Shown piece after piece: positions 23,906 to 24,463 of a DNA stretch of 26,182 nt. Position 1 is the first letter of the stretch, and the number at the start of each line of letters is the position of its first letter. This DNA comes from a virus. The stretch lies in the UHGV virus genome UHGV-2131677. The stretch is one strand, 5' to 3'. The notes under the pieces were generated by a model. The model was given only the letters and a program-made list of their open reading frames with translations. It ran no database searches and was not told where the DNA came from. Position numbers and translations under genes: made by a program.

Positions 23906-23931
23906 CGCGCTCCGCTTGTCTGCTGCTTCGC

Positions 23932-23956
23932 CGGGGCATAAAAAATTTATGCCCCG
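23932..23956. other. Perfect 11-bp-stem hairpin (CGGGGCATAAA-AAA-TTTATGCCCCG) 27 nt after the Q stop codon
   Basis: Read directly; no U-tract on either side. Confidence 0.5.
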
Positions 23957-24277
23957 ACTCACCAGCTCCGGTGTGTCACGCACCAGGCATCTCAGGGATC
24001 TACAGGTTGAATAACCTGTCAGCACACGCCGCACCAAAGCGCATCACAGGGCGTGTGATGCATCAGCCCATACTTCACACACAACCAATAAAACATCGCG
24101 TCAGGGGCGCAATCAGCCGCATTTCTGGCGATTTCTGGGGATGCTTTCAGACCCCAAATTGCGGGCTGTTCCCCCGGCACCCGCGCGCAACAAAAACGCG
24201 TTTTTTTGTGCACGCACGGATCCTTGACGGATCCAGCCGCCACGCGGGCCGGAAGAGCAAAAAATCGTTCAAAAAAA

Positions 24278-24304
24278 TTGTGCAAATTTGTGCACTATTG
24301 TGCA
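24278..24304 (+). repeat. Three direct repeats of TTGTGCA phased exactly 10 bp apart, with a fourth copy at 24206-24212; candidate regulator-binding array upstream of the cargo gene
   Basis: Copies at 24278-24284, 24288-24294 and 24298-24304 read directly. Confidence 0.45.
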
Positions 24305-24463
24305 GAAGAGCGATACATGATTTTCGCCTTTATTTCAGTGTGTTCAGGTGGCCATTCTCAATACCCATTTGGTGAGAGACAGGAATAAAAATGATCTTTA
24401 TCAGTAGGTTATGTGTGTGATTAAATTAGATGCAGCACGTTTAGTCCCCAGAACCCAAGACCA

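Follow-up and report, generated by a model that had tools for sequence, protein, structure and literature searches.

In phages P2 and 186 and in the satellite P4, the cohesive-end site (cos) lies just past the 3' end of the portal gene and adjoins a variable cargo region, as does the site described here, and its 19-nt 5' cohesive ends have been defined experimentally. Passages in two reports that cite Ziermann and Calendar (PMC9594776, PMC5694545) describe a 55-bp P2/P4 core. It runs from GCGCGC through the nicking site (cosN) to a first TGCA box, here termed box0; three further boxes (boxes 1-3) are situated outside this core. The literature searched yielded no experimental proof that these outer boxes are needed in P2. 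The minimal cos is reportedly ~125 bp long, a result credited to Ziermann and Calendar in 1990, and may, depending on how that length is split, exclude boxes 1-3. P2-type phages are also said, following Pruss and Calendar in 1978, to package from circular monomers. The cos of phage lambda has a comparable layout in that a nicking site (cosN) is flanked on one side by proximal and distal repeats (cosB, R3-I1-R2-R1), and lambda cosB carries an IHF site between the proximal and the distal repeats.

The stretch of DNA analysed here (the window, 26,182 nucleotides of the virus genome UHGV-2131677) is a P2-like prophage in an orientation reverse to the P2 map, and the phage records nearest to it are of the P88 type (genus Xuanwuvirus) rather than P2. 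Judged by its sequence, the segment 24139-24304 is very probably the cos of this P88/Xuanwuvirus-type P2-like prophage and an in-register homolog of the cos of P2, 186 and P4. It represents a divergent version of an established kind of site, not a new kind of element.

Layout of the interval between portal gene and cargo

The morphogenesis genes follow one another as in P2 (gpM-gpN-gpO-gpP-gpQ) and are followed by the cargo (Table 1). The large terminase gpP contains an N-terminal helix-turn-helix (residues 11-67; window 21132-21302), an ATPase domain and an RNaseH-like nuclease domain; it is presumed to be the cosN nuclease and is a possible reader of the boxes. The interval between gpQ and the cargo gene consists of three unrelated parts, a hairpin (23922-23966), a spacer (23970-24160) and a core (24161-24304), and in BLAST searches one record only covered all 558 bp.

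Table 1. Coordinates of genes and sequence elements in the window (strand '.', unstranded)
Feature	Position	Strand	Remarks
gpM, small terminase	18160-18972	-	Pfam Phage_term_smal, E 4.6e-37; candidate reader of the box array
gpN, capsid	19022-20083	-	
gpO, scaffold	20093-21115	-	
gpP, large terminase	21102-22856	+	Pfam Terminase_5/HTH_23, Terminase_6N, Terminase_6C
gpQ, portal	22856-23905	+	
Stable hairpin	arms 23922-23942/23946-23966; core stem 23932-23956	+	inverted repeat just past the gpQ stop codon
Q-cos spacer, lineage-specific	23970-24160	.	holds the nested dyads (24002-24061) and an ATTTCTGGSG x2 repeat
Dyad ACAGGTT/AACCTGT	24002-24019		
Dyad CAGCACACGCC/GGCGTGTGATG	24020-24060		
Dyad GCATCACA/TGTGATGC	24041-24061		
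cos left flank	24139-24164	.	extent inferred from what satellite and helper have in common, a segment starting 26 nt left of cosN
Predicted cosN, 19-nt cohesive end	24165-24183	.	GCTGTTCCCCCGGCACCCG on the + strand; homology to P2/186/P4
cosN-box0 linker	24184-24205	.	short GC dyad and first five bases of the T7 run
box0, TTGTGCA	24206-24212	.	TGCA invariant; counterpart of the AATGCA closing the 55-bp P2/P4 core
box0-box1 spacer, 65 bp	24213-24277	.	fixed length, variable sequence
ACGGATCC x2	24216-24234		direct repeat
Boxes 1-3, TTGTGCA x3	24278-24304	.	10-bp phasing; starts 24278, 24288, 24298
Cargo leader	24305-24463	+	travels with the DUF3800 gene; outside cos
DUF3800 cargo gene	24464-25270	+	PADLOC candidate defence family PDC-M04A, E 2.6e-35

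An earlier note, made from the sequence alone, had called the interval highly structured. This holds for the hairpin, for which the predicted folding energy is -22.2 kcal/mol on the + strand (z -3.3 against shuffled sequence) and -30.6 kcal/mol on the - strand (z -6.0), but not for the rest, which is marked by DNA motifs instead of folding: the stretch with the nested dyads (23995-24085) folds marginally (z -2.1 and -1.1 against shuffled sequence) and the folding of 24086-24160 is not significant by the same comparison. The hairpin is kept in relatives, the first ~70 bp of the interval being conserved in BLAST searches, and its position is the counterpart of tQ in P2 and tW in 186. It is followed by no T-run on either strand and drew no call in a terminator scan. 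An Rfam scan of 23000-26182 brought no family to threshold; the two sub-threshold matches were a gyrA-like one on the hairpin, which reached 23 bits where the gathering score is 45, and one to a hairpin-ribozyme model (13 bits). We propose that the element may serve as the 3' hairpin of the P-Q operon. Both it and the nested dyads are outside cos.

The spacer that carries the dyads is a rare allele, found by BLAST in 16 of 5,426 complete E. coli genomes compared with 1,148 for the cos core, and most relatives have a different sequence between Q and cos. The nested dyads are thus not required for packaging in this phage group, and the dyad-rich spacer may be dispensable filler. All of the repeats listed in the earlier note are present where it had placed them. 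Its figure of about 0.1 kb for the distance from Q to cos in P2 was too low, the P2 annotation giving 167 bp; the gap is 259 bp in the window as against 167-176 bp in P2 and 186. Several related loci (L083, L096, L034, L108 and L106) have a reverse-strand gene of ~170 aa in the Q-cos gap; it occurs in two or more versions that are unrelated to each other and have no Pfam match. These insertions indicate that the Q-cos gap is a second, smaller and rarer variable insertion point. Open reading frames that cross the interval (23971-24375 on the + strand, 24019-24285 and 24147-24272 on the - strand) were rejected because they span boundaries between conserved and variable sequence.

A conserved core in register with the mapped cos sites

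When the interval was compared by BLAST with 5,426 complete E. coli genomes, the matches to the core ran from 24161 to ~24304-24310, mostly with 90-95% identity, and the flanks varied on both sides. The assignment of this core to cos locates the packaging site for an E. coli prophage group that is present in about one complete genome in five.

For the comparison with described sites, a seven-way MAFFT alignment was made of the window, a satellite (described below), a type B and a type C relative, P2, 186 and P4. Gaps are lacking from the C-run of cosN up to and including box 2, and a single gap of 1 nt stands at the left margin of the cohesive end. The register common to the window and P2/186/P4 consists of a C-run-G-N7 core, a distance of 25 nt, a T-run, a box0 with TGCA, and three TGCA boxes starting at +72. 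The columns invariant among all seven sequences are T..T.CCCCG.C.C in cosN and TTTT..TGCA, TGCAA and TGCAC in the T-run and the boxes. The earlier note had expected cos, together with terminase-recognition elements, within the interval, and had named alignment with the P2 and 186 cos regions as a check. In that alignment the core, 24161-24304, shares its register with the cos regions mapped in P2, 186 and P4. Together with the sharing by satellites, this bears out the first expectation, and the second is supported by the same alignment and by a satellite that has neither terminase nor portal. The GC-rich block that the note had seen at about 24150-24190 corresponds, by MAFFT homology, to the predicted cohesive-end sequence.

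The cohesive end itself, which the earlier note had been unable to pick out by eye, is predicted at 24165/24166-24183. These positions align with the annotated ends of P2 (GGCGAGGCGGGGAAAGCAC) and 186 (GGCGTGGCGGGGAAAGCAT) and with the 19-nt terminus of the P4 record, which agrees with that of P2. Read on the strand of the window, the P2 end is GTGCTTTCCCCGCCTCGCC and is aligned to GCTGTTCCCCCGGCACCCG; the two are identical at 11-12 of 19 positions and differ at ~7-8, so that both where the nicks fall and the length of 19 nt are extrapolations, and the ends are predicted in the window whereas they are experimentally defined in P2, 186 and P4. On the - strand, in the 'left end' convention of P2, the predicted sequence is 5'-CGGGTGCCGGGGGAACAGC. 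Of the two boundaries, the right one (24183|24184) has the better support; the left one is placed to within ±1-2 nt. The end of cosN and the TGCA of box0 stand 25 nt apart in P2, in the satellite and in all three types (A, B and C), with different sequences in between, and this constant distance fixes the right boundary well. On the left, the window can be aligned by BLAST from 24161 only, plus a CCCC motif at 24151-24154 for which the family consensus is acCCCC, and it lacks the GCGCGCA that flanks the P2 and 186 sites.

Relatives of type C (L009) have CTCCCCCGCCTCGCC, which is almost the P2 end, at the place of cosN, together with the TTGTGCA boxes of the window; by sequence, these relatives are hybrids that link the two types of cos. 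Type C relatives also show a duplicated box0 (L009:5934-5949, TTGTGCACTTTGTGCA, two copies 9 bp apart). The cos of a prophage of E. coli HS, the sole E. coli prophage cos mapped by read starts in the literature searched, is a 186-like variant (GGCGTGGCGGGGATACGAG) and not of the window type (PMC8008629, Table S4). Physical end mapping for a TTGTGCA-type cos, or a cos of P88 or Xuanwuvirus, did not turn up in the literature searched, and among the phage records and virome contigs searched none started or ended at the predicted cosN.

To the right of cosN, the T-run of the linker is conserved (T7 at 24201-24207, extending into box0), TTTT being invariant in the seven-way alignment. Type B phages and the satellite have a linker of unrelated sequence and equal length, also followed by the T-run. 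The GC dyad of the linker was considered as a terminator and rejected, since it is absent from type B phages and from the satellite.

TTGTGCA as such is not enriched in the window (8 copies found, 7.5 expected), and four of the copies fall within 99 bp. Their starts are spaced 72/10/10, boxes 1-3 standing at +72, +82 and +92 from box0 (24206). P2 has AATGCA at index 43 followed by boxes at 115, 125 and 137 (72/10/12), and in 186 and P4 the boxes are at 43, 115, 125 and 138 (72/10/13). The distance from box0 to box1 is accordingly 72 bp in the window, in the satellite L008, in L009, P2, 186 and P4, in spite of different intervening sequence. Within the window this spacer has two copies of GGATCC (24218-24223 and 24229-24234), two A-tracts (24259-24264 and 24271-24277) and a stretch rich in GC; the later copy of GGATCC (index 46-51) coincides with the position of GGATCC in several P2-type sites. 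The window differs from P2, 186 and P4 in the sequence of the box, which is TTGTGCA rather than (A/C)ATGCA, and it differs from the P2 group in the spacing of boxes 2-3, which is 10 bp rather than 9-13.

Both box types recur widely in IMG/VR. Three phased copies of TTGTGCA were found 122 times; 107 of these occurrences have an exact fourth copy at -72 and 2 have one at -71. Independent lineages share the 72/10/10 spacing. Nearly all of the triple-box loci with enough upstream sequence lie 350-464 or ~870-1,060 bp past a P2-type portal gene, and these portal genes are 66-98% identical to gpQ of the window. Tandem TTGTGCA arrays at L024, L029, L056, L071 and L113 stand in no cos context and were judged unrelated. 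A scan of the same database with the P2-type end gave 104 unique right-hand sides, which form 75 clusters below 85% identity. Of these, 100 have ATGCA at index 25 after cos, 90 have it at 96-98, 83 at 106-108 and 78 at 115-121, and the sequence between the ATGCA boxes is not conserved. The consensus sequences of the TTGTGCA family and of the P2-type sites match in register.

Satellites and the proposed function of the boxes

The TTGTGCA-type cos, like that of P2 and P4, is common to a helper and a satellite. One E. coli genome has a 12.5-kb satellite-like island between gcd and hpt (L008; NZ_CM132658.1, about 4411344-4423858), and further examples are L111 and L126. The island encodes two integrases, an HTH regulator, an Icd-like protein, an 889-aa toprim primase, an ogr/delta zinc-finger protein, MazEF and a homolog of the P2-family major capsid protein (423 aa, with 36% identity to gpN), and it contains no portal or terminase gene. 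A gpN-type capsid gene of its own is unusual for a P4-like satellite. The segment with ogr/delta and cos occurs in 55 of the 5,426 E. coli genomes, and its core is 76% identical to that of the window.

The only part of the island that matches ~400 P88-type prophages is 5979-6145, which begins 26 nt to the left of the predicted cosN and ends with the final base of box 3. The satellite has kept this 167-bp module, which amounts to a natural deletion analysis: judged by what is kept, the region needed in cis would include the four boxes. The sharing mirrors P2 and P4, between which cos is the only homologous region (PMC9122126). A cis region of ~167 bp with four boxes should be useful for annotating prophage ends and for the design of cosmids or transducing particles with P88-type helpers, and should help to foresee which satellites can be mobilised by a particular helper. 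A second satellite-like element (L115:8000-13613) has homologs of a P4-type integrase (37%), capsid (41%), scaffold (45%) and a small-terminase-like protein (28%); its cos has AATGCAC and TTGTGCAC both beside box0, and its boxes 1-3 are TTGTGCA.

Together with the alignment, the satellites make terminase recognition the most likely role of the TTGTGCA array within cos. We propose that gpP would make staggered nicks around ~24165-24183 and leave 19-nt 5' overhangs. The four boxes would be bound by a terminase oligomer, through gpM or through the N-terminal helix-turn-helix of gpP, much as in lambda cosB, and this binding would position the gpP nuclease on cosN, 25 nt away. Since 72 bp is ~7 helical turns and boxes 1-3 are phased at 10 bp, all four boxes would face roughly the same side of the helix. 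The comparisons show the homology, the fixed spacings, the limits of conservation and the sharing with a satellite; where exactly the cuts fall, how long the overhang is, which protein binds the boxes and how the DNA is wrapped are features that we infer.

The lambda and window sites are alike in that their repeats presumably recruit terminase and in that the spacer has a fixed length. They differ in that lambda cos has no sequence homology to that of the window and no equivalent of cosQ has been identified in the latter. Unlike lambda cosB, the window has no IHF consensus (WATCAANNNNTTR, at most 1 mismatch) in its spacer or elsewhere in 24139-24304, the nearest match being at 24399. A further difference from lambda is that the P2-type large terminase bears its own N-terminal helix-turn-helix. 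A segment of this helix-turn-helix reads I(N/S)(Q/P)NT(I/V)(Y/H)(S/A)WKKRD in all of the TTGTGCA-type phages compared and (M/V)KRPTVQSWKQRD in P2 and 186. This difference is compatible with a change of specificity and is confounded with overall divergence. For the same reason the differences that the gpP helix-turn-helix and gpM show between box types do not identify the reader of the boxes, gpP and gpM being 47% and 35% identical, respectively, to those of P2.

A broader generalization may be drawn from these comparisons, although we put it forward tentatively and consider it rather doubtful at present. Four phased boxes with a TGCA core could be a general cosB-like module of P2-like phages and their satellites, lying outside the 55-bp core, with the box sequence (GTGCA or ATGCA) and the variant of the end defining packaging-specificity groups that have their own satellites, and the reader would perhaps be the gpP helix-turn-helix and not the small subunit. 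If this is true, the 12.5-kb capsid-bearing island is a satellite of the TTGTGCA-type specificity group.

The cargo border and other readings of the repeats

A cos-adjacent hotspot located between gpQ/cos and the replication genes and occupied by many alternative cargos has been described (PMC9122126), and the window conforms to it, the cargo here being a DUF3800 gene of the PDC-M04A candidate family. Conservation in other genomes ends at ~24304-24310 in BLAST comparisons. Comparison of 93 unique versions of the region shows conservation through the TTGTGCA of box 3 and, directly after it, a break-up into many unrelated families. This pattern shows that the array belongs to the cos module and not to any one cargo. 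In comparison with the published hotspot, its border is now fixed to the base after the third TTGTGCA, which sets the edge of a defence hotspot to a single base, and a second, rarer insertion point has been added between Q and cos.

The same pattern bears on the suggestion, made in the earlier note, that the TTGTGCA copies are operator-like sites controlling the cargo gene. In this reading the array would supply operator or promoter elements for the DUF3800 gene, or would have a dual use with the last box doubling as a -35 element. The array does stand directly upstream of the cargo leader and TTGTGC resembles TTGACA, and transcription of old-tin in P2 begins ~30 bp past box 3, a box that, by eye, is overlapped by a TTGAAT -35-like hexamer. 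Against this, the array is identical before many unrelated cargo junctions and in satellites, and it is the positional homolog of the boxes in P4 and 186, whose neighbour genes differ. A scan of 23800-24600 found no sigma-70-type promoter, and no box is followed by an acceptable -10 hexamer 16-18 nt further on. An extended -10-like sequence (TGATTAAAT, ~24418-24426) can be seen by eye in the cargo leader and was not called by the scan. The invariance of the array before unrelated cargos and in satellites, together with the lack of a promoter in 23800-24600, speaks against the operator suggestion, and we regard a role in cargo expression as improbable.

Still less probable is a cohesive-end cut near 24260/24261, inside GGAAGAGCA|AAAAAT, with the C-rich stretch 24165-24183 reduced to a flanking recognition element. 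This position was suggested by LR595891 (P88_4B11; L003/L004), a linear record whose ends meet precisely at the position equivalent to 24260/24261, and by GCGGGCCGGAAGAGCA just to the left of it, which by eye loosely resembles the P2/186 end GGCGGGGAAAGCA in the opposite orientation. The record has no terminal redundancy, however, so its break point may be arbitrary and was not counted as evidence. The in-register alignment with three experimentally defined cos sites instead places the cohesive end at 24165-24183, the very position at which type C relatives have nearly the P2 end, and the stretch around 24260 is poorly conserved among lineages. The break in LR595891 falls 77 bp right of the predicted cosN, between the GC-rich spacer and an A-tract.

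The third reading, in which the repeats are centromere sites for the StbB/ParM-like partition genes or iterons for replication, is very improbable: StbB and ParM homologs are encoded 1.2 kb downstream of the array, phased direct repeats are typical of parC-type centromeres, and TTGTGCA tandem arrays do exist outside any cos context (L024, L029, L071 and L113), but array and cosN are a fixed distance apart in each lineage, positional homologs exist in P2, 186 and P4, where the stretches examined beside cos have no annotated partition gene, the satellite keeps the array with no ParM or StbB homolog among its annotated genes, and the cargo hotspot stands between the array and the par genes.

The StbB-like (Plasmid_stab_B) and ParM-like genes occupy 25502-26177 on the minus strand, just past the cargo gene, and amount to a plasmid-type partition system inside an integrating P2-like phage. 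P88_4B11 has a partition-protein gene at the same place.
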